Positions 10,503 to 40,351 of a stretch of DNA of 64,000 nucleotides are shown here, one piece after another. The stretch is from Bdellovibrio sp. 28-41-41 (GTDB taxonomy: Bacteria; Bdellovibrionota; Bdellovibrionia; Bdellovibrionales; Bdellovibrionaceae): contig NCGL01000004.1 in assembly GCA_002256935.1 (NCBI GenBank), positions 11,557-75,556 on the forward strand, given 5' to 3'. Position 1 is the first letter of the stretch; every line of letters starts with the position of its first letter. The notes under the pieces are model-generated. The model had not been told where the DNA came from. It saw only the letters and a program-made list of their open reading frames with translations, and made no database searches. The position numbers and the translations under genes are program-made.

Positions 10503-10578
10503 AGGGAGTTAGCTCAGTTGGTAGAGCGCCACCCTTACAAGGTGGATGTCGCAGGTTCGAATCCTGTACTCCCTACCA
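10503..10578 (+). tRNA. tRNA-Val (anticodon UAC)
   Basis: I folded the cloverleaf by hand: acceptor AGGGAGT/ACTCCCT, D arm GCTC/GAGC, anticodon arm CCACC-CTTACAA-GGTGG, T arm GCAGG-TTCGAAT-CCTGT. The CCA end is encoded. Confidence 0.93.
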
Positions 10579-12380
10579 ATTCCTACAACTTGCGAACCAA
10601 GGATCCCCAAATTATTAAATGTCTTCCCCTCTACGGGGCCAGCGTCAGCAGACGCCGAATCAGCGGCCGGAGCTGAGGACATCGCACGTCTTTTTTCTGC
10701 CAATTCAATGACGTTATTTTCAAAATCTTTAGACGCTTTTAGCTCAATTGGGGTGACGTCTTTGTTCAGCTCACCATGTTTCAAGCGAAACTGAATCTTG
10801 AGCCCCTTTGGGCCGACAAGGACGAAATAAACTAAGTCTTTAAGCAATGTCTTCTTCATGACTGCCGACGCTTTGATCCATCCTTTACGAAACGATACGA
10901 GCCGGTCCTTGAGGTCAGCGATAGAGTCATTGACGTCATCTTTAGCAACTTCTTTGGTTTTTAAATTCTCAAGCTCTGCCTCGATATGGCGTTTTTTACG
11001 GCTAAGATTTTCGAGTTCTTTGGCTGTTTCTTGAATCGCTTCTGACGCAGCATCGAGGGCCGACTGGATCTTAAAAGTATTTTTGATGGCAAGGGTGAGC
11101 CTTTGGTGCTCAAGGGTCAGACGAGCTTTGTCAGTCTTAAGCTGTTCTGGTGATTGACTGGCAAGCTCCCTGATTCTTTGTTCAACTTTATCAAAATGGC
11201 CAGCTTGAAGAAGAATCTCTGACAAATAATCTGCAAGTTTTGTCTCAATTTTTTCAGCACGAATACGTTTCACAGTGCAGTCAATGACGTCACCTTTTTT
11301 AGATGAGTGAACATAATAGCGGTGAACTTGTTTTTTACCGTGAGCTGATTGGCCGACAAGTTTTCGTCCGCACTCCTCACATACACAAAGTCCAGAGGCA
11401 GCAAAAACCCTAGTGGCTGACGTATTAAGCCGCATTCGCTCACGTGAAATATTTTCTTCAAGGATTACGGCTGCTGTAGTGAACGTCACTTCATCAACGA
11501 TAGCTGGCCAAGAAGCCGGAAAAATTCCGTATCGTTGCCAAGCTTTAAGTTTACTTTGATCTTTATTTTTATTTCCCTTATTAACTTCACGAACGGCGAT
11601 GTAGGAGCGATTTTTAAGAACAAAACTCAACGAATCAATGGTCCATCTTCCGGCTTTCACGAGACGGTTTCTGGCATTGTCGCGGGCTTTAGGTTTTATT
11701 CCCTCGGCCGTGATTGCATCAATTGTGCGGCTTAATGTTCTTTGTTCAATGAATACATCAAAAATTCTGCGAACGTGTTTTGTCTCTTCTTCGTTGATTA
11801 AAAAGGTCGCCTTCTTTGCCGGATCTTTATCGTATCCAAGGATTGAGGGGCCTCCGTTTAAAAATCCGCGCTGAGCTCTTGAGTGGCAGTTAATGGCAAC
11901 ACGTTCAGAGGTTTGCTCGCGCTCAAACTGTGCCAAATTTATCATATTATAGAGCATCATTTTTCCGACCGGGGTACTTGAATCAAATTGCTCTTTGATC
12001 GAAAAAAACTTTGCTCCCTGGCTTTCAAGCATTTTATGAAAGCCACAAAAATCAGGAATATTGCGCGACAACCGAGAAATTTCTGTCACCATGACCGCAT
12101 TAATTTTACCGGACTTTAAAGCCTTCATCATCCGCTCATAAGCTGGGCGGTTCGTATCTTTAGCTGAATATCCGTCGTCAACAAAATGTTCAATTAGGTG
12201 GCCCCATCCAGGCTCTTGCAAATTCTTAATATCTAAAAATGATTGGAGACGATGGCGCTGGTTATCAAGTGAACCTTCGATGACATTTGCCTGCTCGTCC
12301 GTAGAAACTCTTGAATAGCACCCAATAAGCAGTGCCGCTTGAGAAATAGTATTTACGTCAGGCTGCGATTTGTTCTTCAT
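10509..12380 (-). CDS. Large serine recombinase
   Basis: It carries the resolvase active site CYSRVSTDEQ, a recombinase domain, a Cys ribbon (CVCEECGRKL..HRYYVH) and a long coiled coil. The last ~23 codons are antisense to tRNA-Val. Confidence 0.9.
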   Translation of the reverse strand: MKNKSQPDVNTISQAALLIGCYSRVSTDEQANVIEGSLDNQRHRLQSFLDIKNLQEPGWGHLIEHFVDDGYSAKDTNRPAYERMMKALKSGKINAVMVTEISRLSRNIPDFCGFHKMLESQGAKFFSIKEQFDSSTPVGKMMLYNMINLAQFEREQTSERVAINCHSRAQRGFLNGGPSILGYDKDPAKKATFLINEEETKHVRRIFDVFIEQRTLSRTIDAITAEGIKPKARDNARNRLVKAGRWTIDSLSFVLKNRSYIAVREVNKGNKNKDQSKLKAWQRYGIFPASWPAIVDEVTFTTAAVILEENISRERMRLNTSATRVFAASGLCVCEECGRKLVGQSAHGKKQVHRYYVHSSKKGDVIDCTVKRIRAEKIETKLADYLSEILLQAGHFDKVEQRIRELASQSPEQLKTDKARLTLEHQRLTLAIKNTFKIQSALDAASEAIQETAKELENLSRKKRHIEAELENLKTKEVAKDDVNDSIADLKDRLVSFRKGWIKASAVMKKTLLKDLVYFVLVGPKGLKIQFRLKHGELNKDVTPIELKASKDFENNVIELAEKRRAMSSAPAADSASADAGPVEGKTFNNLGILGSQVVGIGREYRIRTCDIHLVRVALYQLS

Positions 12381-12621
12381 CTAGGTCCTCCTTTGGTGGT
12401 CGTCCTCTTGTTTGACCAAGAAGGATGATTTTAGCGATGAGTTTTTCAACTCTTTCGCGCCTTGCTTCGGCATCTTCCAAGCTATCGGGGACACCGATTA
12501 GCTCTACCGTCATGCTGTCATTATCAAAATCCACCGCCGCTGTATAGGTGGATTTCCTACCCACGCTTAACGTCCTTGGTGGACGCTTGGGCCTCTTCAA
12601 TATGCCGCCCAAACTCTTCAA
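12358..12621 (-). CDS. Hypothetical small protein (start uncertain; internal ATG at 12513 possible)
   Basis: The ORF overlaps the recombinase start. It has a TTG start and an acidic/basic C-terminus, with no recognisable motif. Confidence 0.3.
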   Translation of the reverse strand: MKSLGGILKRPKRPPRTLSVGRKSTYTAAVDFDNDSMTVELIGVPDSLEDAEARRERVEKLIAKIILLGQTRGRPPKEDLDEEQIAA

Positions 12622-12814
12622 TAAAATCCTGAGTCTTTCGTTCTGAGAGGCTTTCCATATATGTCATTACGGCACTGAAAATAGGACTTGGGGTCCTAAA
12701 CCCAGTTTCAAAATGACTGATCGGCGCTTTTCCTGAAAGGCCAAGCAATGCAGCTAACTCCGGCTGTGTGAGTCCCAATTTTTCTCGGATTGATTTGAAT
12801 TTTTTTGGACTCAT
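12557..12814 (-). CDS. XRE-family helix-turn-helix protein
   Basis: The HTH is IREKLGLTQPELAALLGLSGKAPISHFETG. An ATGA overlap links it to the upstream 136-aa gene. Confidence 0.7.
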   Translation of the reverse strand: MSPKKFKSIREKLGLTQPELAALLGLSGKAPISHFETGFRTPSPIFSAVMTYMESLSERKTQDFIEEFGRHIEEAQASTKDVKRG

Positions 12815-24388: not shown

Positions 24389-24661
24389 TTATGCAATCTT
24401 TATTGCTGATTCTGAAAAAAATTCTTGATCTGCGTTTTCGTGATCGTTATTTTGTTTTTGTGTTAGCGATTCAAAAGTGACTTGATCGTCAAACTGCTGC
24501 CTGACTGCTTGGAATGGATTGTCGAGCTGGCCGAGCTGAACCAGCAGCAAACTATTATCCCAATCACAATCACAGCACATTTGGTCTAAGCCCATCGTAA
24601 CGATTTCGACGGACCCGCATTTTGGGCACTTTTCTTTTTTATGTTGTTTCGTTATATTCAT
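24389..24661 (-). CDS. Zinc-ribbon mini-protein (first gene of the T4SS operon)
   Basis: It carries CPKCGS..CCDCDW and has an acidic tail. The SD is AGGGGGA. Confidence 0.5.
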   Translation of the reverse strand: MNITKQHKKEKCPKCGSVEIVTMGLDQMCCDCDWDNSLLLVQLGQLDNPFQAVRQQFDDQVTFESLTQKQNNDHENADQEFFSESAIKIA

Positions 24662-24718
24662 TCGATCCCCCTTTATTGTTGGACTCTCTTTTCAAGAGCA
24701 TTTCTTGACTCCCTATAG

Positions 24719-24735
24719 AGCAGGAATGGGTCCGA
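24719..24735 (-). promoter_or_regulatory. Candidate sigma54 (-24/-12) promoter for the T4SS operon
   Basis: The minus strand reads TCGGACCCATTCCTGCT. This gives GG-N10-GC spacing with a CTGCT -12 element, about 60 bp upstream of the first ATG. Confidence 0.3.
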
Positions 24736-24823
24736 ATGTTTTTTCAGATGAAAAAATGAAACTAAGTCGTTGAAAGAATTTAGAAAATATAGAAAAAGTG
24801 AATTGAGGAGTTATTTTTAAAAT

Positions 24824-24839
24824 TGGCGGATACCCGCCA
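24824..24839. promoter_or_regulatory. 16-bp palindrome TGGCGG-ATAC-CCGCCA (candidate enhancer/UAS, alternatively a weak terminator hairpin)
   Basis: The half-sites are perfectly inverted. This is one of three copies in the window. Confidence 0.4.
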
Positions 24840-24892
24840 TAGATAAAAAATGCAAACTTAAGAATATTAATAAGTTATGCAAAAAATCTCGG

Positions 24893-24908
24893 TGGCGGTA
24901 TGCCGCCA
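24893..24908. promoter_or_regulatory. 16-bp palindrome TGGCGG-TATG-CCGCCA
   Basis: This is the second copy. It lies 69 bp from the first and 75 bp downstream of the kinase stop codon. Confidence 0.4.
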
Positions 24909-24982
24909 TACCTGGCGGCAAGTTACCAGGGGAAAGTTGTCGTTAAAAAATTGAATACTTTTAAGAGATAAAGGCGTGGTTG

Positions 24983-26539
24983 CTAGCGAACAATGATTGG
25001 TAACGTAGAGATTTGACTTTTGGGGATCAAAAAGACTCCGTCTCTTGAGCATCGGGAGCGAATATCAAATTGATCAAAATTTCCAGTGACAAGAAACTTT
25101 TGTGACTCAGTCGGCAGGTTTGACAGCAGATCTAAGCCATTTATTTCCTCATTTAAATCAAAGTCCAAAAGAAAAATGTATCGTTCAGGGTTTTCAGAAA
25201 ATTTGTTCTTTAGACTCAGTAGCTCACGCGAAGAAGAAAATAATTTGGTATTTGCGGAAAGAGCCACTTCGCGCATCTTTTCATTCCATAGGTGACGAGC
25301 TGCCAGTTGGTCATCTAGAATTACAATCACCGAGTCCTGATTCAGTTTTAACCTCGGGACATACCATTTTGCTCGCTCTTTTATTGGAAGAGTGATTGTG
25401 ACGAGAGTTTCAAAATCTTTTTGTGAGTTGACTCCAATTTTTCCGCCCCAAGATTCAATCCACTGCTTTGCATGATACAAACCAATACCAGTTCCGCCTG
25501 CTTTACCGGAAGTAAAACCATTTTCAAAGACCTTGTTTATAATTTCAGATGCAATCCCGCGACCGCCATCTTTTATCGAGATGACAATCTCTCCGCCATT
25601 ATCGACAGCGGAAAGCTTAATCAGTCCGCCAGAAGTTGTTGCCTCGATTGAGTTATTTACGATATTCCCAAGCAGGGCTCTTAACTCAAATGGGACATGA
25701 GTTGCTTCTGCCGAAACAATAGAGTCATCGATATCAGATTCAAATTTCAAATATGAAGGTATCGACAACGCAATTTCTCGCACGGCGGAAACCAAGGAAT
25801 CATAAATTTCTACAGAATTGTTGGCTGAAGCAGAATCAGACTTTTTGTCTTCATCAAGAGAGGAAATTAAACTCTTTATTTGACCGATAGTCGAGATCAA
25901 AAGTTCCTTGTCGGCTTTTACTGAGTCTGGCAAGCGAGTTGGAATCCTCATGAGCGCAGCAAGTGGGGTTCTTAAATTATGGCGAATTTGCCGAGCGAGT
26001 TCAGCCTTTAATAATCCCTTTTCTGCACCTAGATCGTTTTCCAATTGCTCCAGGATTCGCTTTTTCATGTATCTAGTTTGAGGAATTGAAACCAGATTCA
26101 AAACGATCCATACTAAAAGTGCGTAAGGGATTAATCGAAGGCGACTGTATTCAAAAATGATTTCATCGGGACCTATCGAGCTAAGTTTATCAATAGTCGG
26201 AAATGTCACTTTCTCTTTAGTCAGAGATCTCCAAAAAGAACCATCAGTGAAATACTCAGCATTCGGAGGAAGCGAAAAGGACCGAGCTGTATTTGGCGAC
26301 CGATACCAAATAACTTCAAATTTATCGAGCCGTGCCTCTTGCAATATTAAACCGACTTCTCGAAAGTCACCAATTTCAACCATTCTAGAAATAAACTTGG
26401 TACTTTGTTCTGCTACTGATTGCATATGTAAAGTATTGGCGATCATTGATATGCCTAAAATAATAAAAAGGCCGATGGTCGAAAAAACCATTTGTTTCTG
26501 CTCAAACTGTTTGATTCGGTTTGGAAAAGATTCTACCAT
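24983..26539 (-). CDS. Membrane hybrid sensor histidine kinase
   Basis: Two TM helices flank a ~110-aa periplasmic loop. The H-box is RHNLRTPL and the HATPase G-boxes are DGGRGI and GGTGIGLY. The C-terminal domain is receiver-like (ILDD..LLDFDL). Confidence 0.85.
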   Translation of the reverse strand: MVESFPNRIKQFEQKQMVFSTIGLFIILGISMIANTLHMQSVAEQSTKFISRMVEIGDFREVGLILQEARLDKFEVIWYRSPNTARSFSLPPNAEYFTDGSFWRSLTKEKVTFPTIDKLSSIGPDEIIFEYSRLRLIPYALLVWIVLNLVSIPQTRYMKKRILEQLENDLGAEKGLLKAELARQIRHNLRTPLAALMRIPTRLPDSVKADKELLISTIGQIKSLISSLDEDKKSDSASANNSVEIYDSLVSAVREIALSIPSYLKFESDIDDSIVSAEATHVPFELRALLGNIVNNSIEATTSGGLIKLSAVDNGGEIVISIKDGGRGIASEIINKVFENGFTSGKAGGTGIGLYHAKQWIESWGGKIGVNSQKDFETLVTITLPIKERAKWYVPRLKLNQDSVIVILDDQLAARHLWNEKMREVALSANTKLFSSSRELLSLKNKFSENPERYIFLLDFDLNEEINGLDLLSNLPTESQKFLVTGNFDQFDIRSRCSRDGVFLIPKSQISTLPIIVR

Positions 26540-27369
26540 AAATGAACCTCTAATCCCTTAACCCGATAGCCAACAGGAGTAATTGGGCAGTTTTTAAACT
26601 CATAGAAATCATCAAGGTCAATTTCAGTCCGCTCAAGCTCAGGAATTGGGATTGATAATTCGGTGTCATTTTTTCCAAGCAATGGAATAATTTTAGATAG
26701 GAATTCTGTTCCCATGTGAGCGGGATTTTTAAAACTATTGTCAGAGTTAGTCGATAAAGAGCTTTGAGTAGAATGATACCAAGCAAAGTTAGCTAAGGCT
26801 TCTCGAAAAGATTTAGTGACACTCTCTTCTAAATTGTCTGTTAGCGCAAAGCCTAGAATATCAAACGAATTATTCATGACAATCTGGCAAACAATCCCAA
26901 AATAGGGTGCAGATGCGGCCATCGCGTAGAACGATACATTTACATCCGGCATTCTTTTTAGAAACTCAGCGAACTCAGATTTGGAATTCGACGAGGCTAA
27001 ATTCATATAGATTTTTTTGAACGAAACTTGATCCTTTAAATGAGAAAAAATAAAATATCGCTCCAGTGCTTCGCAATAGGCATGATTGTCCGCACCGTTT
27101 CGTCCGCCAACTGCAAAACCTAAAAAAGATTTCTGAGTCCTATAGAAAATCAATCGCTCAATGGCTTCGGAGACTGATTTTTCCAAAGCCAGTACGCGAT
27201 CTAAATCTATACCTCTGCCTTCGGCTATTTTTTCGCCAAAAGTGATTTTAGTCGCGAAATCGTATAGCCCTGGAAAGTAGGTAGTAGTCCAATCCAGCTC
27301 AGTAAATTTTGGATTGAATACCGATTTATTTGAATAAAGCCAATGGGCTAATTTATTTTGATTAGCCAT
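26533..27369 (-). CDS. Compact YcaO-like protein (278 aa, no signal peptide)
   Basis: The motifs resemble the YcaO ATP/Mg motifs: GRGIDLDRVLALEKSVSEAIERL, GFAVGGRNGADNHAYCEALERY and LGFALTDNLEESVTKSFREAL. Confidence 0.5.
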   Translation of the reverse strand: MANQNKLAHWLYSNKSVFNPKFTELDWTTTYFPGLYDFATKITFGEKIAEGRGIDLDRVLALEKSVSEAIERLIFYRTQKSFLGFAVGGRNGADNHAYCEALERYFIFSHLKDQVSFKKIYMNLASSNSKSEFAEFLKRMPDVNVSFYAMAASAPYFGIVCQIVMNNSFDILGFALTDNLEESVTKSFREALANFAWYHSTQSSLSTNSDNSFKNPAHMGTEFLSKIIPLLGKNDTELSIPIPELERTEIDLDDFYEFKNCPITPVGYRVKGLEVHLW

Positions 27370-28889
27370 AAAGGATTATTCGCATAGAGTTCAGAGAGTT
27401 CCATTCTCCAGGGTTTTCTAACAACGGCTGCATAGGGAGTTGCCATGAAAGGTACAATAATTGGCGCGGCAAGAGCTTCAAAATGAAGAGCCTTCAATTT
27501 TTGAACTCGAATATCTTTGTCGTTAGTCGCCATATAATTTGCTAACCATTTTTCACGCTCTGGCTTTTTTACCCCCAAAAATCCCGCGTTGAGTGAAAAG
27601 GAGATCAGGCCAATATCCTCCTTATAAGCTGTGTCTGTCGAGACGACAAAAGCGTGTGGCATATCTTCAGGTTTAAGATCTTTTTTTAAATCGGGCGGTC
27701 CAGATTCATGGTAACAATCAGCAAGTGGCAGTTCCTCCTTTATCGGCTTGGACCAAGCATCAAAAGAACCTCGCTTCATCAGACCGATTCGAACTGATTT
27801 TTTTGGCTCTACTTCGCCGTTAGATCTTATTTTAGCTAGTTTACTTTGCTGATCGTTAGTCAACCCACCTTCGCCGAGGCTTGGGAAAAACTCTTCTCTT
27901 TTTTCAAATCCAGATGAATCATGGTAAATTTTGAAAAATGCAGCCTTTACTCGTTCGCCAATGTATCGCCTTTCCGCAGCAGAGAATTCTCTTTCTCCGC
28001 GATCAGTGAATACCAGCGCCATCGTTCTAATCTTCATCGTTGTGTGGATACTAAAATCAGAGTCATGCTTCACAAACTTAATTAGTTCGTCGGCTTTCAC
28101 GGTGTCGATAGTGGTTAATAAATCGACTCGATTTTCAACTAAAGCTTTTAAGCTATCGCCCTGAACTTTTGGATTCATGCCAACAAGCTTAATGATGTCC
28201 GCTATGTCGGATGCAGCATGATAGTGATTGGGGTTAAGTTTCAGTTCTATATTCCCATTTCCGTCATCATCAGAAACAAAATAGGGTCCACTTGTTTCCT
28301 TAAGATTGATGATTGCCAGTGTTTGGGGGTCACAGCTTGTTCTTGGAATAATAGCAAAATCAATTGCAGCAAGCATGGGCAACAGAAATGGTTTTCTCTC
28401 TTTTGCATTTAAATAAACGTAGTTTCCCTCGCTTTTGATTCCTGGGCATTCATCCTCGACGGTTTTTAAAATATGTCCAGGACAAATAAGGTCTTTGAAA
28501 TTGCCGTGTGTGTTTCCTGATAAAACTAGAAGACGTTTCAAAGAAAACACCACATCCTGAGCCGTTATCAATACACCTGATGCAGTCTTTAGATTATCCC
28601 GGATCTTGAGCCTTAGTTCGTCGTTGATCCAATCGGCTTTTTCAGCAACCCCAGGCTGGATCGACCCTTTCGCGTCAATCTCAACCAGCGGTGAAAAAAC
28701 ATTTTCTAAAAAAATATATTCATAACCAAGACGTATATCAGTTGGTTCATAACTTAATGATTTCCTTTGTTCAGGAAAGGCGACTCGGAGAGTCCTATTG
28801 GTATTTAATTGCTTCATTGAAAGACCTCCGCCAGCCGTAAGTAAAAATAATATCCCAATTATAATTGAAAGTCGCTTTGAGACAACCAT
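27348..28889 (-). CDS. Family-5 (OppA/DppA-like) solute-binding protein, membrane-anchored or secreted
   Basis: It has an N-terminal hydrophobic anchor. An SBP_bac_5-like core follows (PLVEIDAKGSIQPGVAEKADWINDELRLKIRDNLKTASGVLITAQDVVFSLKR). Confidence 0.7.
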   Translation of the reverse strand: MVVSKRLSIIIGILFLLTAGGGLSMKQLNTNRTLRVAFPEQRKSLSYEPTDIRLGYEYIFLENVFSPLVEIDAKGSIQPGVAEKADWINDELRLKIRDNLKTASGVLITAQDVVFSLKRLLVLSGNTHGNFKDLICPGHILKTVEDECPGIKSEGNYVYLNAKERKPFLLPMLAAIDFAIIPRTSCDPQTLAIINLKETSGPYFVSDDDGNGNIELKLNPNHYHAASDIADIIKLVGMNPKVQGDSLKALVENRVDLLTTIDTVKADELIKFVKHDSDFSIHTTMKIRTMALVFTDRGEREFSAAERRYIGERVKAAFFKIYHDSSGFEKREEFFPSLGEGGLTNDQQSKLAKIRSNGEVEPKKSVRIGLMKRGSFDAWSKPIKEELPLADCYHESGPPDLKKDLKPEDMPHAFVVSTDTAYKEDIGLISFSLNAGFLGVKKPEREKWLANYMATNDKDIRVQKLKALHFEALAAPIIVPFMATPYAAVVRKPWRMELSELYANNPLWLIKIN

Positions 28890-28900
28890 AGTATGCCCCC

Positions 28901-29173
28901 CTACGCGCCGGCGTCAGGGCAAATAGACAACAATTTAACTCCACCTTTTTCAATCGCACCATTTTGGTTAAGTAAATCAAAAATATCCTGATCCAATTGA
29001 AGACATTGATTGAGTTCTACATTGATTACTTTTGTCTCAATGAGTGTTTGAATGGCCAAAGCAATTTTTAGCTTTTGAGCATAGGTAAGACCAGGCTTAC
29101 TTGTTGTCTGCGCAAAACCTTCATTTGCTGCTAGGAAGCTAGCGATAACAATTATTATAGTTAAATTTCTCAT
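28901..29173 (-). CDS. Small secreted protein (90 aa)
   Basis: It has a Sec-type signal (cleavage near GFA-Q), a helical body and two Cys residues, and ends ...LLSICPDAGA. An ATGA overlap links it to the regulator gene. Confidence 0.55.
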   Translation of the reverse strand: MRNLTIIIVIASFLAANEGFAQTTSKPGLTYAQKLKIALAIQTLIETKVINVELNQCLQLDQDIFDLLNQNGAIEKGGVKLLSICPDAGA

Positions 29174-30570
29174 AGTTCATCCCCCTCGATATGTTGTTTT
29201 GTTTCGATCCCATATTTTTTCATTTTGTCTCTTAATGTGCTTCGGCTGAAGCCCAATTGTCTTGCGGCTCCGGAAATGGATTTTGATTTTTGAAGAGCTT
29301 CAGTGATCAGAATTTTATCTTCATTCTCTCGCACCGCTTTTATTGAATTGATGTCAGATAATTTCTGAGTATCATTTGCCACATAAATTCTATCTTTAAG
29401 AATACTTAAATCTAAGTACTCGCCGACCGATGCACTGACCAAATGTTTAATACAATGCTCAAGCTCTCTTACATTTCCCTTCCAGTGCATTTTTTTGAAT
29501 TCTTCTACAGTAGCCTCGAGCAAAATTTTATTTTTACGTTCTTCTTGATTTGCTCTTTTTATGAAGATTTCTGCTAAATAGGGAATATCCTCTGGGCGTT
29601 CTCTTAGTGGTTTAAGATTGATTGGCAAAACATTTAGCCGATAAAAAAGGTCTTCCCGAAATTGTTTATTTGCAATCATGCTTTCGATGGGTGCATTTGT
29701 TGCAGCAATCAATCGAAAATCAATTTTTTTTGCGATGTTTGATCCTACGGGCATAATGGTTTTTTCTTGAAGCACCCGCAAGAGTGTCGCCTGAAGGTGC
29801 ATTGGCAGCTCACCAATTTCATCCAGGAAAATAGTGCCACCATTCGCCGCTTGAAAGAAACCAACTCGTGCGCGGTTCGCACCAGTGAACGCACCCTTTT
29901 CGTGTCCAAAAAGTTCTGACTCAATTAAAGTTTCTGGAATACTAGCACAGTTTACAGCTATAAACGGCATCAAGGCTCGTGGAGAATGTTTGTGGATGCC
30001 GCGAGCTACTTTTTCTTTTCCAGTTCCATTTTCTCCGCGAATGAGAACTGTTTCTTTCGAGGATGCAAAACGCAATATTAGATTGGCTGTGTCGGCCAAG
30101 GCATTAGAAATGCCGACCATATCAACACTCTCAATGAGTTTTCTATTTGCGTTCTCAGTAAATAAGGCAACGGGCTTTGTTCGCTTTTCAACTTCACGAC
30201 ATAGACGATGAATAATACCTAGTAGCTTGGCATTGGCTGTGTCTTTTTCAACAAAAAATACCGCCCCTGAGTCGAGAGACTGATTGTGGGCTTCAACGGA
30301 ATCGTCGCCAGAAAAACCTAGAATTGCTAGATTGGGCTCTCGTGCCTTAATTTCTTTTATAACTTCAGGGCCATTCATCCCAGGCATGTGAAAATCAATC
30401 ATTCCCAAAGAAAACTGATTAATTCCCTGCCTGACAATGGCGATGGCTTCTTCGCCGCTCTCAACGGCGCGAACAGAGAACCCTTCGTCTTTAAGAAAAG
30501 CCACCATAGAGCTTCTGATATTTGGATCATCATCGACAAGTAGAATATTGTGTTGCAATCGTACCCCCAA
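29170..30570 (-). CDS. Sigma54-dependent response regulator (NtrC family EBP). A TTG start is possible at 30570 or 30558.
   Basis: A receiver domain (ILLVDDD..) is followed by an AAA+ domain with GENGTGKE and ESELFGHEKGAFTGA. The C-terminal Fis-type HTH is ISGAARQLGFSRSTLRDKMKKYGI. Confidence 0.9.
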   Translation of the reverse strand: MGVRLQHNILLVDDDPNIRSSMVAFLKDEGFSVRAVESGEEAIAIVRQGINQFSLGMIDFHMPGMNGPEVIKEIKAREPNLAILGFSGDDSVEAHNQSLDSGAVFFVEKDTANAKLLGIIHRLCREVEKRTKPVALFTENANRKLIESVDMVGISNALADTANLILRFASSKETVLIRGENGTGKEKVARGIHKHSPRALMPFIAVNCASIPETLIESELFGHEKGAFTGANRARVGFFQAANGGTIFLDEIGELPMHLQATLLRVLQEKTIMPVGSNIAKKIDFRLIAATNAPIESMIANKQFREDLFYRLNVLPINLKPLRERPEDIPYLAEIFIKRANQEERKNKILLEATVEEFKKMHWKGNVRELEHCIKHLVSASVGEYLDLSILKDRIYVANDTQKLSDINSIKAVRENEDKILITEALQKSKSISGAARQLGFSRSTLRDKMKKYGIETKQHIEGDEL

Positions 30571-30598: not shown

Positions 30599-30776
30599 GA
30601 AACGAAGCACAGGTTTGAGTATAAGAAATAGCTTGGCCTTCGGTTTAAATGTATCTGGACTAAAGTAATTTAGTTTAGTTGGTTGGCTGATCGAGTATTT
30701 TTTTCATGACTGCCTAATCCGAAAAAAATAGCGAAGAGACTTCATGCTTAATCAATAGTTTAGGCTAGCTAAAAGG

Positions 30777-30792
30777 TGGCGGAAACCCGCCA
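30777..30792. promoter_or_regulatory. 16-bp palindrome TGGCGG-AAAC-CCGCCA
   Basis: This third copy lies about 200 bp upstream of the regulator gene and about 180 bp downstream of the recD2-like stop codon. Confidence 0.4.
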
Positions 30793-30968: not shown

Positions 30969-33542
30969 TCACTGCGCTATGAGTTCCGTTAAAGCTGTCT
31001 GTCGATTTCGATTATCAATCTGGCCGACAGCCATTGCAAAAGCCCGACGAGTTCCCACAAAAATAGCAAGCTTCTTTGCCCGTGTTAAACCCGTATAGAT
31101 TAAATTTCGAAAGAGCATATTAAAATGTTGTCCTAGTACCGGAATAATCACCGCTTGAAATTCACTTCCCTGACTTTTATGAATTGTAATAGCGTAGGCT
31201 AGGGAGAGTTCAGAGAGATCATCTTTTTCAAAAACCACTCGTCTTTCGTCGCCTCCCGAGAAGACAACTTCACAGGTCATGTCTTCAGTATCAACATCAG
31301 CAATATGACCGATGTCGCCGTTAAAAATACCAAGGTCGTAATTATTTCGTGTTTGAATGACTCGATCGCCAACTCTCAAAACTTTTTCGCCAATAAGTAG
31401 CTGTCGTTTTCCTGGGCGTTCAGGATTGCTAATGTTTTGCAGGCAAGAGTTTAAATTAACAGTCCCAACAGTGCCGCGAACTTGTGGCGTCAAAACTTGA
31501 ATTTCAGCCCCTGGCCCTAACCACTCGGGAATGGATTTTGTATAGAGTCTGACAATTGTTTCCAAAGCCGTAAGTCCATAATGCAGTGATGACCAAGGAT
31601 GCACATTTTTTAATACATGATATAATTCTTCAATTCCGTTTTGGGCGGAAATTAATTTTGCTAAATCCACATGCCTAAATTTTTCTGGAATAGTAAGAAT
31701 AGGGGCCTTTATAGAGGCTTCGTCTATATTTTCAGGCCGGAAGAGTTTGTCGATTTCAATAGAGCCTTCGCTTAAGGCATGAACTTTGCCAAGCCATTCA
31801 TCACCAGCTTTTAATAGCGCATCTTGATTATTTGTTTTTGCGGCTGCAATAGCTTGTTTTGCGCGTTGAATGAATTGGATTTGGTCTTTAGTGGCTTCGT
31901 CGGCGTCAACAAAAAGACAATCATTACCTTCTTGAAAAGCTTTTGGATGAGCTAAAGGGGAGATAATCTTGGGCACAGACCCAGTATTGATTTCGTGGGC
32001 ATAGCGTATAATTGTCGAAGCTTGAGCCTGGCGAAATACTTTCGTCAATCTATACCTTGAGATAGATTCAGCTTTAAGTAAGTCAGAAAGCACGTCTCCG
32101 GCTCCTACGGCGGGCAACTGATCGGGGTCACCAATAAAAAGAACTTGGGCATTAGGCGGAATGGATTTTAAAAGCGATGCGGAAAGACTTATATCCAGCA
32201 TAGACGTTTCATCCACTATTAAAAAATCACACACTAAGGGATCTTTATCGTCTTTTTTAAAGCCTCCCTTTTCAGGAGCCCATTCTAAAAGTCGGTGGAT
32301 TGTTTTAGCTTCGAAGCCGATGACTTCGGTCATTCTTTGTGCAGCTCGACCAGTAGGCGCCGCCAATAGAACTTTCTTTTTCATCGCAAACAAGAGTTGC
32401 ACAAGGACCTTTGTTGTCGTGGTTTTGCCGCACCCCGGACCTCCCGTAAGAATTGAAAATGACTGGCTAGCAACGCCACAAACGGCTTGAAATTGTTCGT
32501 CGCTGAGTTCAATTGCATGTTTTTGGCAATACTTTGCTGTCCATGTTGAAATCCTATCGGAATCAACCGTTATCTTTGTTCTAGAAAGCTCGGAAATTAT
32601 TTTTGCCGTTGTCATTTCGTCAAAATAAAGACCATTGGAATAGTAGCAAGGCTCTGGTCCATCACCGCGATCAAGCGTGCGTGATTTGGCCTGCCCCGAT
32701 GACAGCAGGGAACTGAGCACGGATTTAATACTATCGTCGTCTAATGGTTCTCGCAAAAGTTCAGGCGTTTGAGTCATTATTTGTTTTTCAGAAAGGAAAC
32801 AATGTCCTACTTCGCGGCTGGCCGAAAGCACATGTTTTATTCCCGCTTCGATTCTGGGAATTCCCGTTTTTTCAAATCCCATGGCTAAGGCAATTTTATC
32901 CGCAGAAAAAAAACCGATACCATAAATATCATGAGCTAAGCGATAGGGATTTTCCGAAACAATGGAAATGGCTTTATCGCCATAGGTTTTGTAAATCTTG
33001 GTGGCAAATAAAGTGCTAATCCCATACCCTTGCAAAAAAATCATGACATCGCGAATAGATTTATGTTCCTCCCACGAAGATCGAATTTGTATTAGTTTTT
33101 TGTCCGCGATTCCTGGAACTTCCAAAAGTTCATCAATTTTACTTTCAAAAATTTCTAGGGTACGTTCTTTAAAATGATTGACCACTCTGCGAGCAATGGC
33201 CGGACCAATTCCTTTTATTAATCCAGATCCCAAGTATTTTTCTAAGGCAGCGGCGGACGCTGGCTTTTTTTCAATTGCACGAACGGCTTTGAACTGCTCG
33301 CCATGCTTGTGATGGTGAGAATAGGAGCCATGAAATTCAATTGTAGCCCCGGCAAACACTTTTACTTGATGAATAAGAACTGCGACAAGTTTAGCTGGAT
33401 CTTTAAATGGAGTCACTTTCATCACAGTCCAACCATTTTCTGGGTTGTGATAGGTAATTCTCTCAACTATTCCAGTTAATCGTTCTAAGTGTTCATGAGT
33501 ATGGTTGTTTGAGTTTTGCAAAAAATTATTTCCTTCAAGCAA
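30969..33542 (-). CDS. recD2: RecD2-type SF1B DNA helicase
   Basis: The N-terminus has OB and helix-hairpin-helix regions (GIGPAIARRVV). Motif I is GGPGCGKTT and motif II is LIVDETSMLD. The C-terminus has an SH3-like region and helicase motifs. Confidence 0.85.
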   Translation of the reverse strand: MLEGNNFLQNSNNHTHEHLERLTGIVERITYHNPENGWTVMKVTPFKDPAKLVAVLIHQVKVFAGATIEFHGSYSHHHKHGEQFKAVRAIEKKPASAAALEKYLGSGLIKGIGPAIARRVVNHFKERTLEIFESKIDELLEVPGIADKKLIQIRSSWEEHKSIRDVMIFLQGYGISTLFATKIYKTYGDKAISIVSENPYRLAHDIYGIGFFSADKIALAMGFEKTGIPRIEAGIKHVLSASREVGHCFLSEKQIMTQTPELLREPLDDDSIKSVLSSLLSSGQAKSRTLDRGDGPEPCYYSNGLYFDEMTTAKIISELSRTKITVDSDRISTWTAKYCQKHAIELSDEQFQAVCGVASQSFSILTGGPGCGKTTTTKVLVQLLFAMKKKVLLAAPTGRAAQRMTEVIGFEAKTIHRLLEWAPEKGGFKKDDKDPLVCDFLIVDETSMLDISLSASLLKSIPPNAQVLFIGDPDQLPAVGAGDVLSDLLKAESISRYRLTKVFRQAQASTIIRYAHEINTGSVPKIISPLAHPKAFQEGNDCLFVDADEATKDQIQFIQRAKQAIAAAKTNNQDALLKAGDEWLGKVHALSEGSIEIDKLFRPENIDEASIKAPILTIPEKFRHVDLAKLISAQNGIEELYHVLKNVHPWSSLHYGLTALETIVRLYTKSIPEWLGPGAEIQVLTPQVRGTVGTVNLNSCLQNISNPERPGKRQLLIGEKVLRVGDRVIQTRNNYDLGIFNGDIGHIADVDTEDMTCEVVFSGGDERRVVFEKDDLSELSLAYAITIHKSQGSEFQAVIIPVLGQHFNMLFRNLIYTGLTRAKKLAIFVGTRRAFAMAVGQIDNRNRQTALTELIAQ

Positions 33543-33651: not shown

Positions 33652-34494
33652 TCACATATAAGCGGGCTTATGAAAATCATACTCAGATCGGTTGCGAATT
33701 GGTCTAGAGACAACATAAATCATGGTTGATTCAATAAATCGGTGACGAAGTTGTTGTTGGATCATCATTAAGCTGGCCCCTCTATTCAAAAGGTTGCTAG
33801 CTAAACTATGTCGTAGAAGATGGGGAAATATACGTCGCCCGATTTGTGCTCTTGATGCTGTTGTTCGAAGTGTTTTCCTTACGTCACCCGTAGTTAATTG
33901 ATTGTTCTTAAGCAGTGTTGTGAAAAGAAAATGTTCCTTTTCTCTAGGGTGAAATCGCAAATAATCAATAAGAACGCGCGTACATTCTGCGGAAATATTT
34001 ATAACACCATCCTGTCGATTTTTTCCGTCTCGCACGGTGACTTGGTTTGCTCCCAAGTCAACATCCTCTAACTTTAAGTTGCATAATTCTAGATTTCTAA
34101 CTCCTGAATACGCAAGCAAACAAATCATAGCCTTAACTCGAATATTTTTGGCGGCCAAAAGTAAACGCGAGACCTCTGACTCTGTCATCACATCCTTAAT
34201 AAGTCGTCTTGGTTTTTTTGGTCGAGCAAGCTTTATCGCTTGGCCTTTGAAGCGGGTATAATGCTCTAGCCCTAGGGAAGAGTTAACAACGTGACTGTAG
34301 CTATATTTTTTGTCATACATCCAGCCAACATATTCCTTAATATTTTTGTATTGGGGAATGAATTTTTTCATTCTTCGTAAGGAAATACTCACAGTTCGAC
34401 AGTAACCGCTGGCCGTAACTTTCGAAAGGCCCCGGTCCACCATCAAGTAGCCTTCGAACTTCTTCATCTGCTTGTTTAGTTTTGTTTTGTCCAT
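33652..34494 (-). CDS. Tyrosine recombinase (small Xer-like integrase)
   Basis: A core-binding N-domain precedes the catalytic residues in GVRNLELCNL, HLLRHSLASN, LRH and TMIYV. Confidence 0.85.
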   Translation of the reverse strand: MDKTKLNKQMKKFEGYLMVDRGLSKVTASGYCRTVSISLRRMKKFIPQYKNIKEYVGWMYDKKYSYSHVVNSSLGLEHYTRFKGQAIKLARPKKPRRLIKDVMTESEVSRLLLAAKNIRVKAMICLLAYSGVRNLELCNLKLEDVDLGANQVTVRDGKNRQDGVINISAECTRVLIDYLRFHPREKEHFLFTTLLKNNQLTTGDVRKTLRTTASRAQIGRRIFPHLLRHSLASNLLNRGASLMMIQQQLRHRFIESTMIYVVSRPIRNRSEYDFHKPAYM

Positions 34495-35547: not shown

Positions 35548-37269
35548 TTACCAAGTGCAGGCGGTGGATCCATCAGTCGTTCGAACCCAACTTGTTGAGC
35601 CGCCCTTACAGACACATGTGGTATATTGCGAAGTGAGAGCAATCACTGCATCGTGTGCAGCATCGCAGGCGTAAGGCTGCGCGGAGTTCTTCGCCACTCT
35701 GATATTCCCGTTAATATCTAACTTGTCCTGAGGAGATGTAGTCCCTATACCGACATTGCCCTGGATGATGGCGCCGTTTGTAGGCGCCGCAACGCCCATG
35801 TTACCAGCTCCTATGCTCAGATTGCCGTTGATATCTAAACTTGATCCCGGAGAAGCGCCTGTATCGACACCAATACTGACTTTGCCTCCTCCGTTGCCAA
35901 TGTTTGTATACCCAGTTGAGTAGTAATTAATCCAAAGGTCACTCCACCCATTCTGATTGCCACTTGCATCAGTAAGTACTCCCTCAAAGGAAGAGGCATT
36001 TTGCCAAGTGCCGTAAAAGCTGTTTTTGTCTAGAACATAAACTCCGGTGGAAGTAGCTCCGTCCATACCCCACAATTTAGTCTTAGCAACTTGTGTGGTC
36101 GTACCAAATTGTGCACTTCCTGTCGAATTCACCGAAAAATTTGTCGTGGCTCCAGTTCCAACTGACAGCAATCCGCTCGGGCCCGTAGTTCCGATCCCCA
36201 CATTGCCATTAGCTACGATCAAGCCATAATTGTTTATAGCACCTGTTGCTGAAAAATAACCACCCACATTTGTAGATGTAGTTCCTGTTGAACTCACTGC
36301 CGATGAAATACCTGTTCTTGTAATTCCCGCAGTTCCATTAGCGCCAGAGATGGCAATATTTAACCCTGAGTTTCCACTGGCTGCTGCGGTTGAAGTAGAA
36401 GTTAAGTTTAATAAAGAGCCGCTAGTTAATCCATTGCCAGTTATGCTTTGCACGGGATTTGTAGTCACAGAGTTTGCAATCACACTGGAAGCGGTACTGG
36501 TGCCGGTATACGTCTGAGTAAAAGTTCCTGTGCCTGAAGCCATGGAAAGATTTTGATTAGCCGCTATGCTCACGGGTCCATTTAACGATACGGCTCCTGT
36601 TCCTGTAGAAAAGGTGCTGGCTCCGGTTTGTACAAAATTATTACTTGTGGTTCCAGCAATCAGCGCGGCTAGATTGGTGTAATCAAGGGCGCTTAAAACA
36701 GCCGGCGTTGTGCCTGTGGCCACACTTAAATACTGACTTGAATTTACGCCGCCCAGTTGAATTGAATTTTGAGCGCTTTGGGCGTACATCGCCTGAGGCA
36801 CCCAAGATAAGGCAATATTAGGAATTGAATCTGGGCCACTGCCATCATCAAAGCTAATCACTAATTTTCTAGTATCACTAACAATAGGTGTATAAGAAGT
36901 AGCAGCTGTTGCACACGGCGCGCTGGCCGCTGTTAATGAAATCACATTTGAATTTGAAAAAATAGAATTCAGTGAGTTGCCGCCATCAATACTGGGGGCA
37001 GCTCTTGTGCCAGCTCCTAAGGTTAGTGCAAAAGCCCCTTGGCTCTGAGATAAATCTAAGCTCTGAGTTTCTTGATACAAAAGACAATCCTCAGCTCCCG
37101 GGCTTTTAACTTGAATAGTAAAAGCTACCGAGCTGGATGTAACAGCCGTGCCATTGCTGTTTAACAATCGCCCCTGCACCGCTACCGACTGACCTGCAAA
37201 ACTGACTTGAGCTAATAGCCATAGGCTAAGTCCAACAGATACTTTTAATAATTTTATCCAAGCCCTCAT
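35548..37269 (-). CDS. Secreted fibre/adhesin-like protein (tail-fibre-like repeats, Cys-containing C-terminal tip)
   Basis: It has a signal peptide and long G/S/T/A/N-rich repeats. The motifs GNVGIGTTGPSGLLSVG and GNVGIGTTSPQDKLDINGNIRV are present. The C-terminus has four Cys residues. Confidence 0.6.
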   Translation of the reverse strand: MRAWIKLLKVSVGLSLWLLAQVSFAGQSVAVQGRLLNSNGTAVTSSSVAFTIQVKSPGAEDCLLYQETQSLDLSQSQGAFALTLGAGTRAAPSIDGGNSLNSIFSNSNVISLTAASAPCATAATSYTPIVSDTRKLVISFDDGSGPDSIPNIALSWVPQAMYAQSAQNSIQLGGVNSSQYLSVATGTTPAVLSALDYTNLAALIAGTTSNNFVQTGASTFSTGTGAVSLNGPVSIAANQNLSMASGTGTFTQTYTGTSTASSVIANSVTTNPVQSITGNGLTSGSLLNLTSTSTAAASGNSGLNIAISGANGTAGITRTGISSAVSSTGTTSTNVGGYFSATGAINNYGLIVANGNVGIGTTGPSGLLSVGTGATTNFSVNSTGSAQFGTTTQVAKTKLWGMDGATSTGVYVLDKNSFYGTWQNASSFEGVLTDASGNQNGWSDLWINYYSTGYTNIGNGGGKVSIGVDTGASPGSSLDINGNLSIGAGNMGVAAPTNGAIIQGNVGIGTTSPQDKLDINGNIRVAKNSAQPYACDAAHDAVIALTSQYTTCVCKGGSTSWVRTTDGSTACTW

Positions 37270-37294: not shown

Positions 37295-37624
37295 TTACTC
37301 ATTTGAAATAATCTGTCCCTGAACATTTAAGTAAACGATCTTGTTTTTATTTGTGACTAGCCTAACTTGGCTTGTCGATGCGCCCACTGTTACATCGACC
37401 TTGTGCTGCGCGCTCACCGTGCTTTCGGAAAGCTTACTTCCTGAAACAACTTCATAACCTGTGGCTGCGGGCTCTGCCGGTGATTGTGCACCATAATTGG
37501 TATCCACCTTAGACTTGTCACCGCCAAAGGGATTTGAGCACGCCCCAAGGGCTAAAGTTAAGCAAAACCCTAGACTCACAAAAATCATTTTTATAAAGCT
37601 TGGCTTGCGTGAAAATAAATTCAT
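37295..37624 (-). CDS. Small lipoprotein
   Basis: It has a signal peptide and the lipobox LALGAC. Confidence 0.55.
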   Translation of the reverse strand: MNLFSRKPSFIKMIFVSLGFCLTLALGACSNPFGGDKSKVDTNYGAQSPAEPAATGYEVVSGSKLSESTVSAQHKVDVTVGASTSQVRLVTNKNKIVYLNVQGQIISNE

Positions 37625-37644
37625 CGAACTCCCTCTTTCTGCCG

Positions 37645-38946
37645 CTATTCTTCTTTGCCCAAAGGAATGATTAGTCCGAACTGTGTGCGGAAATCTTTTC
37701 GTGTTTGATTTGTTAAAGAAGTTTTCTGCGAGGTTTCAGCGTATTCACCTAAAGCAAAAATTGAAAGACGTTTAAATTTATGACTCACCTTTAATTGAGT
37801 AAAATATTCTGCCCCGGGACTTACGTTATAGCTTGTGCCCGATAGACCAAGTAAATAACTAACACCCAAAGCGCCTGTTAGATTTAGTTTATTAACTTCG
37901 AGTAATTTTTTTGAAATTAAAACCCGCGCATAAGGAATAGGTTTTGTTTCTAACGTAGCCGTTCCAGTAACATATGAGGGGGCAAAAATTTCTTCGCGAG
38001 TTCCGAGTTCAAGAGTTCCCCAAAGCGTTTGAGAAAGCCTATGATTAAGCCCCACAGCCATCAGCGATGTGGTTTGCTTATTTCCACCAATTACCGTGCC
38101 GCTACTTGTATCTTGAAAGGAAATCGAATTATAATTCCAGCGAATAAAACTGCTCATAGACTGAGACCAGTTTTGTTGCCATTTTAAATTAGCCCCTAGT
38201 GTTGGACGCGACAGCAAGACAGCGCTCGCTGAACTCAAAGAGGAGTCAAGTCTTGAATAACCAGTTTCCAAAGAAATCTCTAATTCACTCTGCGCTTGAG
38301 TTTCCGGATTAATTAATTCAAGGCTTTTTACTTTTTGTTGTACTTCTTTTGCAGTTTTTTGAGATTGAGTGTCTGGAGAATTTGGATCACGAGGCTCATT
38401 GGCGAGTGTTCGATTGGTTGCTTTTTGTTTTATTTTTAACCTATCATTAAAAATAATTTCATTTCGTTGAGTGATCTGAACAGCGCCCTCATGTTGGGCT
38501 TTTAAGGCCAATGTTTTAGGAAAAAATAACCTATCGCCTGGAAATAGTAAGTCGATATTAGGAATGTGTTTCGCATTTTCTTTGCGCAATAAAAAAAGAG
38601 TGCCGGATTTGGCATAAATCGGCCTAAGTTTTGCCCGGTATAAAAGAGTAGAAGCATTATCATTTTTTTTAATCATATAATAATAGTTTAAAGCCATTGA
38701 ATGAGAATCCAAAGTGAAACTAAGAATAAGAGAATAAATGAGAAATTTTCTTAACATGCTAAAAAAACCATCGGTTGGTTTTGAGACTTTCTTAAATTTT
38801 CGCTTTGATTGAGCTTTTCGTATCAAACTGAGACTCAAATCTAGACTTGAGAAATTAAGCAAAAAACTTTCCTTTTTAAAATTATATTCACCCTTTTGAG
38901 GCGCGCAATCTTTTGACGTTGGTAGAGTTTTGAGTGAAGACTTCAT
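37645..38946 (-). CDS. LysM-like domain + C-terminal beta-barrel-like protein (alternative start at 38757)
   Basis: The LysM-like segment is YYMIKKNDNASTLLY..LFPGDRLFFP. Alternating-residue strands run to the C-terminus. An ATGA overlap links it to the receiver gene. Confidence 0.45.
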   Translation of the reverse strand: MKSSLKTLPTSKDCAPQKGEYNFKKESFLLNFSSLDLSLSLIRKAQSKRKFKKVSKPTDGFFSMLRKFLIYSLILSFTLDSHSMALNYYYMIKKNDNASTLLYRAKLRPIYAKSGTLFLLRKENAKHIPNIDLLFPGDRLFFPKTLALKAQHEGAVQITQRNEIIFNDRLKIKQKATNRTLANEPRDPNSPDTQSQKTAKEVQQKVKSLELINPETQAQSELEISLETGYSRLDSSLSSASAVLLSRPTLGANLKWQQNWSQSMSSFIRWNYNSISFQDTSSGTVIGGNKQTTSLMAVGLNHRLSQTLWGTLELGTREEIFAPSYVTGTATLETKPIPYARVLISKKLLEVNKLNLTGALGVSYLLGLSGTSYNVSPGAEYFTQLKVSHKFKRLSIFALGEYAETSQKTSLTNQTRKDFRTQFGLIIPLGKEE

Positions 38947-39296
38947 GCGGCCAACATTTTAAAAATCGAATCGATTTTTGGAATGGGCTTGTGCAAAAAA
39001 ACCGTTGCTCCTGCTTTTAGAACTTCAGCTTCGGTGTATTTGCAGCCACCAGTCATAACTATTACCGGCGTGCTTCGATCCCGAACCCGAAACTCCTTCA
39101 GAAAATCAATTCCATTTTTAATTGGCATATCGATGTCAGTTAAAATGAGGTCAATTTTCTGCCCCCCCGCAATTAGCTGAAGGGCCTCAAAACCATTTGA
39201 AGCTTGAATGACAGTGAAATCAAGCTGTTCAAAGCTATCGCAGATACAAGTTCTTAGCTCTGACTCATCATCAATTATTAATACAATTTTTTTCAT
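38943..39296 (-). CDS. Single-domain response regulator (CheY-like receiver)
   Basis: The receiver signature residues lie in IIDDE, LILTDIDMP, VIVMTGG and FLHKP. Confidence 0.85.
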   Translation of the reverse strand: MKKIVLIIDDESELRTCICDSFEQLDFTVIQASNGFEALQLIAGGQKIDLILTDIDMPIKNGIDFLKEFRVRDRSTPVIVMTGGCKYTEAEVLKAGATVFLHKPIPKIDSIFKMLAA

Positions 39297-40098: not shown

Positions 40099-40351
40099 CT
40101 TTTATCTCCTGGTTAGTTTGCTTGGCGGCATTTGTTTGAGTCCGCCCTTCACAAAAGGAGGGTGGCGAGGTGCTGCCATGAGTGGAAACTTTAAGACTCT
40201 CCTGGTCGACCGCGAATGCGGCATGAGGGCGTGAAAGTTTCAAAGAAACTGGCGCGACCCATGCGAAGACCAGAAAAAGAGAGGCTTAAAGTTGGAGCGT
40301 CAAACTTAATAACCAGGACTAGATGATCTCAAAATTTAGTAACTTGTGGGT

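Follow-up and report, generated by a model that had tools for sequence, protein, structure and literature searches.

Conjugation is usually described as being under the control of repressors, quorum-sensing activators or excision cascades. Elsewhere, secretion or pilus genes are switched on by a sigma54 enhancer-binding protein (EBP) whose own gene lies inside or next to their cluster, as with VasH and other EBPs of type VI secretion systems (T6SS) and PilR/PilS for type IV pilin. RteB of CTnDOT, a conjugative transposon from Bacteroides, is an NtrC-like regulator. The regulation of T6SS has been reviewed (PMC10482370), and for CTnDOT the element-encoded two-component system RteA/RteB was found to be required for conjugative transfer: RteB activates rteC, and a cascade of RteC and then Xis2c/Xis2d turns on the tra genes (PMC3809561). 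Here we analysed a 64,000-nt stretch of Bdellovibrio sp. 28-41-41 (the window; contig NCGL01000004.1, positions 11,557 to 75,556), in which a sensory operon encoding an NtrC-family EBP and a histidine kinase is followed by an operon for a conjugative type IV secretion system (T4SS). Both are carried by an integrative conjugative element (ICE) of a Bdellovibrionota bacterium. We propose, with a probability of about 0.72, that palindromes lying before both operons are enhancer sites from which the element-encoded EBP would switch on the T4SS operon and its own operon. Comparison of sequences established that the sites exist, are conserved, are regularly phased and co-vary with the helix-turn-helix (HTH) of the EBP. 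Our literature searches found no report of a sigma54 enhancer directly before a conjugative T4SS operon and no report of ICEs of this kind in Bdellovibrionota.

The initial annotation of the region had noted two perfect TGGCGG-N4-CCGCCA palindromes about 120 and 190 bp upstream of a promoter-like box in front of the T4SS operon. Direct reading of the window confirmed both, a proximal dyad at 24824-24839 (TGGCGGATACCCGCCA, TGGCGG-ATAC-CCGCCA) and a distal dyad at 24893-24908 (TGGCGGTATGCCGCCA, TGGCGG-TATG-CCGCCA), and we measured their centres at -123 and -192 from the predicted T4SS start (~24708). A search of the 64-kb window for the pattern with at most one mismatch returned three matches, all of them perfect, while shuffled windows gave a mean of 0.06 perfect or one-mismatch matches and none of 100 shuffles reached three. 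The third match (TGGCGG-AAAC-CCGCCA, 30777-30792) falls between the genes for the RecD2-like helicase and the EBP; it is thereby upstream of the EBP operon, with its centre at -213 from the predicted EBP start site. A degenerate dyad, TGGCGG-CAAG-TTACCA (TGGCGGCAAGTTACCA), was located at 24913-24928; 20 bp separate it from the distal dyad at 24893, and its centre is at -212 relative to the predicted T4SS start. With these two additions to the pair noted originally, three dyads stand before the T4SS operon and one before the EBP operon, all more than 100 bp upstream, as in an enhancer arrangement. The half-sites within a dyad are 10 bp apart, a spacing that fits a dimer bound to one face of the helix. 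Two other repeats were seen. An inverted repeat, AACTTA-N10-TAAGTT, at 24850-24878 between the two palindromes, was near-invariant in L041-L043 and unrecognisable in more distant loci. A degenerate dyad with two mismatches (TGGCGAGGTGCTGCCA, 40163-40178) was found 65-80 bp upstream of the open reading frame (ORF) 39640-40098, homologues of which flank the EBP module in L005, L006, L009 and L010; this ORF may be a further member of the regulon.

The comparison set comprised 40 related loci collected with a kinase profile and four close relatives found by exact-protein look-up (identified here by L numbers). Homologues of the kinase were encountered almost only in metagenome-assembled genomes of Bdellovibrionota, often in 2-3 copies per genome, and the gene order EBP, small protein, binding-protein-like protein, 278-aa protein and kinase was conserved in L004-L038, the T4SS operon usually coming next. 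The related loci, 580 kb in total, contained 28 perfect palindromes where chance would give none, and 27 of the 28 copies were placed upstream of the EBP gene or of the T4SS operon. A logo built from 47 sites chosen by position showed arms of ~0.9-2 bits (1.45-2.0 at 10 of the 12 positions) around a spacer of 0.1-0.4 bits, for which 33 different sequences were counted. Deviations in the arms were often one-sided and broke a base pair, as in TGGCGAccgtCCGCCA and TGGCGGagaaTCGCCA. The conserved arms, the free spacer and the one-sided changes together point to a sequence-specific dimer site and not to a structural hairpin.

The position of the sites was equally regular. When the T4SS upstream regions were anchored on the conserved -12-like TGC, every lineage examined (19 anchored loci together with L012, L015, L023, L024 and L036) had the centre of its proximal dyad at -121 to -123 relative to the predicted +1, and the distal dyad was found at -191 to -195 in the loci that carry the TGGCGG palindrome (class I). 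The sequence between the dyads and the box was not conserved. A three-site layout with the distal pair 20-21 bp apart was also present in L018/L020 and in L015, and the 24913-24928 site was kept in the close relatives of the window. The dyads followed the T4SS genes when these had moved. In L017, L023, L024 and L028, where ~0.8-1.3 kb is inserted after the kinase stop codon, they have kept their position ahead of the T4SS genes; in L007, where the EBP gene and the T4SS operon are divergently oriented, the T4SS operon comes with dyads of its own; and in L009, L010, L011 and L013 neither T4SS genes nor a dyad follow the kinase gene, the dyad upstream of the EBP gene being kept.

The palindrome itself differed between groups of loci, and the recognition helix of the EBP differed with it. 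Most loci belonged to class I, for which the recognition helix is SRSTLRDKMKKY and the helices are SRSTVREKMKKY-like, following the pattern (S/K)R(S/T)T(V/L)R(E/D)K(M/I)KK(Y/H). Class II (TGGCTC-N4-GAGCCA; L026, L027 and L038) was accompanied by the helix ARSMLRSRMRAL. TAACGG-N4-CCGTTA was found in L012, in three T4SS-side copies, and in L033, with STF variants of the helix; TGGCTA-N4-TAGCCA in L015, in one EBP-side and three T4SS-side copies, with the helix SRGALRAKIEKY; and AGTACG-N2-CGTAC in L036, at -122 and on the T4SS side only, with the helix TREYLRSRMRAL. Five palindrome classes were in this way paired with five recognition-helix variants, and for the first four the same class was present at both the EBP and the T4SS regulatory regions of one element. 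The class II loci are informative here, as their T4SS proteins are the closest to those of the window (VirB4 77-83%) and their promoter box is identical to the window's while their palindrome is different, which indicates that the palindrome tracks the EBP module and not the T4SS module.

The EBP is encoded on the minus strand at 29170-30558 and consists, according to Pfam, of Response_reg, Sigma54_activat (6e-68) and HTH_8 domains, that is a receiver, an AAA+ domain with GAFTGA in its sequence and a Fis-type HTH. The motif G[A/S]FTGA was present in 26 of 28 EBP homologues; a search for G[AS]F[TS]GA did not find it in the homologues of L023 and L024, in which the class I dyads before the T4SS genes are kept. 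Every NCBIfam equivalog hit of the protein scored far under its cut-off, those to ntrC (359 vs 559 bits), AtoC (329 vs 714) and ZraR (292 vs 760) among them, and its closest solved structures were those of Aquifex NtrC-family proteins and FleQ; it is a generic member of the NtrC family and not an orthologue of NtrC, AtoC or ZraR. The TTG at 30558 is probably its true start codon, the start in the ORF list (TTG 30570) lying 12 nt too far upstream: a GGGGG ribosome-binding site precedes TTG 30558, this position agrees with the alignment starts of homologues, and in L042 the protein is called with the same 462 aa.

Candidate promoters were scored with two sigma54 matrices, an approximate consensus and a matrix derived from 29 Salmonella sites with support from chromatin immunoprecipitation (Table 3 of PMC3844500), the latter being enterobacterial and so peaked that its negative scores overstate a mismatch. 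Before the EBP gene this scoring brought up a -24/-12 candidate that is absent from the initial annotation and matches better than the T4SS box, TGGCACCATACTTGAT at 30597-30582 on the minus strand. It reads GGCAC-N5-TTGA and reached 9.9 bits with the Salmonella-derived matrix, the 6th place in the window. Its predicted start at ~30571 would leave a 13-nt leader before TTG 30558. GGCAY-N5-TTG[T/A/C] was found before the EBP gene in 21 related loci in addition to the window, with a leader of 5-27 nt in most, and the box is also kept in L042, an 82%-identical relative whose intergenic sequence has otherwise diverged there. At -12 the base is A or T and not C, a deviation shared by the validated sigma54 promoters of pspA (TTGTATT) and STM0649.S (TTGATTA) (PMC3844500). 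In 18 loci the EBP-side dyads were placed at -200 to -215 from the +1 predicted by the GGCAY-N5-TTG box. The third dyad and the better promoter of the EBP gene point to autoregulation, and we consider the box of the EBP operon to be probably a sigma54 promoter under positive autoregulation. Two further features were observed on the EBP side. In L034 there is one more perfect dyad, 770 bp upstream of the EBP gene. In L004, L006, L007, L009-L011, L013, L014, L025-L028, L030 and L038 a 17-bp motif, TGGT-N9-ACCA ('GGTGACA..GACCATG'), has its centre at -121 to -124 relative to the predicted EBP start, with a degenerate copy at ~30694-30719 in the window. It occupies the position that the proximal dyad has in the T4SS promoters and occurs in loci of both class I and class II. 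Either a further protein could bind there irrespective of class, or the motif could be a sigma70-type basal promoter.

On the T4SS side, the initial annotation had described a -24/-12-like box with GG-N10-GC spacing about 60 bp before the ATG at 24661. The box is indeed present as TCGGACCCATTCCTGCT at 24735-24719 on the minus strand, with GG at 24733/24732 and GC at 24721/24720, and the C of its -12 element was measured 59 nt before the ATG. Its core with GG-N10-GC kept, CGGACCCATTCCTGCT, is invariant within the subfamily of the window, and the block TTCGGACCCATTCCTGCTCTATAGG is invariant in the close relatives L041, L042 and L043; despite diverged flanks, the box is identical in L026 and L038 and has one change in L027. 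Boxes in the same register were found in the L018 type (TGGAACGATTCTTGTT, 12.8 bits), L015 (CGGCACAATCCTCGCA, 9.3 bits), L036 (TGGACCAATCCCTGCT), L016 (TGGAATCATTCTTGAA), L012 (TGGTTTCTCGCGTGCA) and L004 (CGGATTTCGTTTTGCT). These, like the window type, keep GG at -25/-24, and every anchored lineage retains G at -13 apart from L007, for which the register is not certain. Between the dyads and the box lies an element (TTTCAACGACTTA, 24763-24775, minus strand) with one mismatch to the integration host factor (IHF) consensus WATCAANNNNTTR, centred near -61. In the lineages counted, the end of the corresponding motif TCAAnnACTTA is 28-29 nt away from the -25/-24 dinucleotide downstream; in L004, L006, L016, L018 and L020 the agreement with WATCAANNNNTTR is exact. 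IHF may bind at TTTCAACGACTTA, between enhancer and box. The combination of a -24/-12 box, a putative bend site near -61 and dyads at -123 and -192 has the geometry of an enhancer-dependent promoter.

Several other candidates were considered around this promoter and dropped. A scan of 24662-24982 on the minus strand for sigma70 promoters found nothing convincing, and reading TTGC..TATAG as a -35, -10 or extended -10 breaks the spacing rules. An alternative -24 element, TGGCAC, ~20 nt further upstream in lineages without GG, has no conserved -12 partner. CTATAGGGAG resembles the 3' part of a T7/SP6-type promoter, which we take as coincidence since no gene for a single-subunit RNA polymerase was seen among the ORFs of the element. 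The stretch with this resemblance, CTATAGGGAGTC, follows the -12 box at 24707-24718; in several sister lineages it reads CTATAGAAC. Away from this promoter, the enterobacterial Salmonella-derived matrix gave its highest score in the window (16.1 bits) to a sigma54-like site, TGGCACAGCCGCTGTTTT, at 44104-44087 on the minus strand; it is antisense inside a Fic-domain ORF (43925-45184) and directed towards genes for a type III polyketide synthase and a methyltransferase (41109-43403).

A number of observations weigh against the proposed enhancer function or its sigma54 component, or limit the case for them. The T4SS box did not exceed chance in the weight-matrix check called for by the initial annotation: the approximate consensus gave it 7.2 bits (96th in the window), and the Salmonella matrix, which is enterobacterial and overstates mismatch, gave -6.8 bits (1595th), compared with 16-23.5 bits for the training sites; the extended consensus TGGCAC-N5-TTGCW is not matched either. 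The box gains significance only because it is conserved and has a fixed spacing in relatives. In about half of the sister lineages the GG at -25/-24 is replaced by TG, GC, TC or GA (L006/L014/L017, L028/L037, L030, L023/L024), with TTGC kept. The GGCAY-N5-TTG box was not found near the EBP start in L018, L020, L021, L022, L034 and L035, where the dyad is kept ~207-235 bp before the gene; the EBP operon of these loci may use another promoter type. There are few palindrome classes, each made up of a small clade, so that shared ancestry may account for part of the co-variation between class and HTH. A search of the window and the fetched loci for an RpoN box found none, and PMC2405797 contains nothing on rpoN in Bdellovibrio. 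No RNA sequencing runs containing the region were found, the runs that contain it being DNA metagenomes only. Of the sigma54 promoter put forward in the initial annotation, the doublets, the fixed position and the conservation in the subfamily of the window have stood, and the match to the consensus has not. Sigma54 dependence of the T4SS promoter is plausible but unproven; because of the weak -24 element and its loss in sister lineages we place this step only somewhat above even chances.

Other explanations of the palindromes have to be weighed against enhancer function. The hairpins had also been suggested to be weak terminators for the kinase operon, and by extension the EBP-side copy could terminate transcription of the RecD2-like gene. 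The 6-bp GC-rich stems do fold as RNA, a pattern scan lists the 30792-30777 copy as terminator-like, and the short minus-strand T-runs noted in the initial annotation (ATTTT and CCGAGATTTTTT) do follow the stems in the window, as they do in its closest relatives. In the window this tract is short or displaced, however, and most orthologous dyads have none. The stems are near-invariant while the loops vary across loci whose kinases are 41-57% identical, with the one-sided changes breaking pairs; the distance to the upstream stop codon ranges over ~50-1300 bp, whereas that to the downstream promoter box is fixed within ~1 bp; no hairpin follows the kinase gene in loci without a T4SS operon there; and the gene upstream of the EBP-side copy varies between loci. 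Lacking both the directly adjoining U-tract and the linkage to a 3' end expected of terminators, the dyads stay with the T4SS operon and not with the end of the kinase gene, and we reject this explanation. A protein other than the EBP, from the element or from the host, could alternatively use the dyads as operators while the EBP acts elsewhere, and the element does encode further small putative DNA-binding proteins (the Cys-rich proteins at the head of the T4SS operon and an XRE-type HTH protein, 12557-12814). Yet the EBP-side dyad persists in loci without adjacent T4SS genes (L009-L013), the dyad class goes with the HTH of the EBP and not with the T4SS module, and dyads at -120 to -215 with an IHF-like element have the geometry of enhancer-dependent systems and not that of sigma70 activators or repressors. 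We regard such a binder as very unlikely.

The EBP could also bind the dyads without any sigma54 start at 24719-24735, the T4SS genes being transcribed by read-through from the EBP operon, with the EBP as a roadblock or anti-roadblock, or from another type of promoter with a TGC-N-TATAG sequence. The poor -24/-12 score speaks for this, as do a GG that is unconserved in about half of the lineages next to a conserved TTGC..TATAG block, and the lack of a convincing terminator between the kinase gene and the T4SS operon. Against it, it is established that an EBP with GAFTGA acts on the sigma54 holoenzyme only, and we know of no other mode of action for such a protein. An enhancer loop would fit the strict -122/-123 register that the proximal dyad keeps with the TGC box, and also the 28-29 nt between the IHF-like element and the -25/-24 dinucleotide; GG-N10-G[C/T/A] is present in seven lineages, L018 (12.8 bits) and L015 (9.3 bits) scoring well; the block accommodates no sigma70-type -35/-10 pair; and in L017, L023, L024 and L028 the T4SS operon lies 0.8-1.3 kb from the kinase gene with its dyads retained. 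On balance we find transcription of this kind unlikely, though it deserves to be kept in mind.

We therefore return to the palindromes as enhancer sites of the EBP. The initial annotation had suggested that the neighbouring EBP activates the conjugation genes from them; conservation, phasing, linkage and the co-variation of class and HTH strongly favour the enhancer sites, and only in part the sigma54 promoter. From these sequence relationships we infer binding and activation by the EBP and the existence of a signal, and the following sequence of events can be envisaged. A signal sensed by the kinase, possibly via its binding-protein-like partner, would lead to phosphorylation of the EBP receiver. 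EBP dimers would fill the dyads at -123, -192 and -212, which would supply enough protomers for one AAA+ hexamer. A bend at the IHF-like element at ~-61 would deliver the hexamer to sigma54 RNA polymerase at CGGACCCATTCCTGCT, which might be a deliberately weak promoter, and ATP hydrolysis would open the promoter for transcription of the T4SS (mating-pair formation) genes. From the single dyad at -213 the EBP would act on the GGCAC-N5-TTGA promoter, so that the EBP-kinase operon would be amplified by positive autoregulation.

The genes from ~10.5 to ~33.5 kb are all on the minus strand, and their protein families were assigned by Pfam. The RecD2-like helicase gene (30969-33542) precedes the EBP gene, which is followed at 24983-29173 by the rest of the sensory operon: a secreted protein of 90 aa, the N-terminus of which resembles a signal peptide; a protein of 513 aa that is weakly similar to periplasmic solute-binding proteins; a 278-aa protein without assigned function; and the 518-aa histidine kinase (24983-26539). 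A 321-bp intergenic region (24662-24982), which contains the T4SS-side dyads, separates the kinase gene from the T4SS operon. This operon begins with the gene for a 90-aa Cys-rich (CxxC) protein (24389-24661), the first of four small genes, and continues with genes for VirB2/3/4/6/8/9/10-like proteins and a coupling protein to ~14859. More small genes lie downstream, among them the XRE-type HTH gene mentioned above, and then a gene for a large serine recombinase (10509-12380), the 3' end of which overlaps tRNA-Val (10503-10578, plus strand; Rfam). This overlap probably marks one end of the ICE; a search around tRNA-Val found no att repeats, and no long direct repeats were found at the other end. 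At gathering thresholds, Rfam returned only tRNA and signal recognition particle RNA in the window, with no match in the two intergenic regions.

Beyond the RecD2-like gene two other groups of genes were observed. A 573-aa protein (35548-37269, minus strand) matched NCBIfam Bdello_MAT_N, a mosaic adhesive trimer chimeric fibre protein family, at 1e-34 and adjoins a tyrosine recombinase (33652-34494); its gene may be cargo or part of a neighbouring island. The other group (38943-39296 and 37295-38946, both minus strand) begins with a stand-alone receiver-domain protein in translational coupling with a protein of 433 aa, after which comes one of 109 aa; the latter two are without assigned function. 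This set may be a further signalling module on or beside the element.

If the proposed regulation is correct, a sigma54 switch on the T4SS would be a logic different from the usual control of conjugation and a tightly silent one, and an external chemical signal would trigger gene transfer in predatory bacteria that are ecologically important and genetically little studied. We offer, as a tentative view, that predatory Bdellovibrionota harbour a family of ICEs whose T4SS is under the direct sigma54 control of a self-encoded, ligand-sensing two-component system made up of the binding-protein-like sensor partner, the kinase and the EBP, and that their EBP/enhancer pairs, of at least 4-5 classes, could be interchangeable and mutually insulated switches that let several elements coexist in one genome. 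The matched HTH and operator classes constitute a natural data set on how the Fis-type HTH of EBPs reads DNA and could supply orthogonal regulator-site pairs, and the fixed phasing of the proximal dyad provides a precise geometry that can be tested.

The closest parallels in architecture are NtrC/NtrB at glnAp2 and ZraR/ZraS at zraP and zraSR. In both, as here, an EBP with receiver, AAA+ (GAFTGA) and Fis-type HTH domains is encoded alongside its partner kinase, and several dyads lie more than 100 bp upstream of a -24/-12 promoter, here a candidate one. Both systems also show autoregulation of the regulator's operon from such a dyad, which is probable for the present locus. The NtrC site is TGCACC-N5-GGTGCA, unlike the 6-N4-6 dyad of the window, TGGCGG-N4-CCGCCA; the target here would also differ, being a conjugative T4SS operon on a mobile element, and the -24 box of that operon is deviant. 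DctD at dctA, NifA at nifH and XylR at Pu combine tandem upstream sites and a weak -24/-12 box with an IHF-type bend site near -60, to which the IHF-like element of the present locus may correspond, and CCTGCT in the window recalls the nifH-type -12 element CCCTGCA. Unlike in those systems, the role of IHF is suggested here by a motif with one mismatch, and the phasing is conserved across a family of mobile elements. From VasH and PilR the system differs in that the machinery is a DNA-transfer T4SS and the EBP is of the phospho-receiver type, with its own kinase and a binding-protein-like partner. The tra box of TraR on the Ti plasmid is comparable as a repeated palindromic operator before both transfer and regulator operons that ties conjugation to an external signal, but TraR belongs to the LuxR-type sigma70 class II activators and binds adjacent to its promoter, without an AAA+ domain, sigma54 dependence or action at a distance. 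By analogy, RteA/RteB of CTnDOT is the closest precedent for an element-encoded two-component system needed for transfer; where RteB reaches the tra genes through a cascade, the putative enhancer sites described here stand directly before the T4SS operon and before the operon of the regulator itself.

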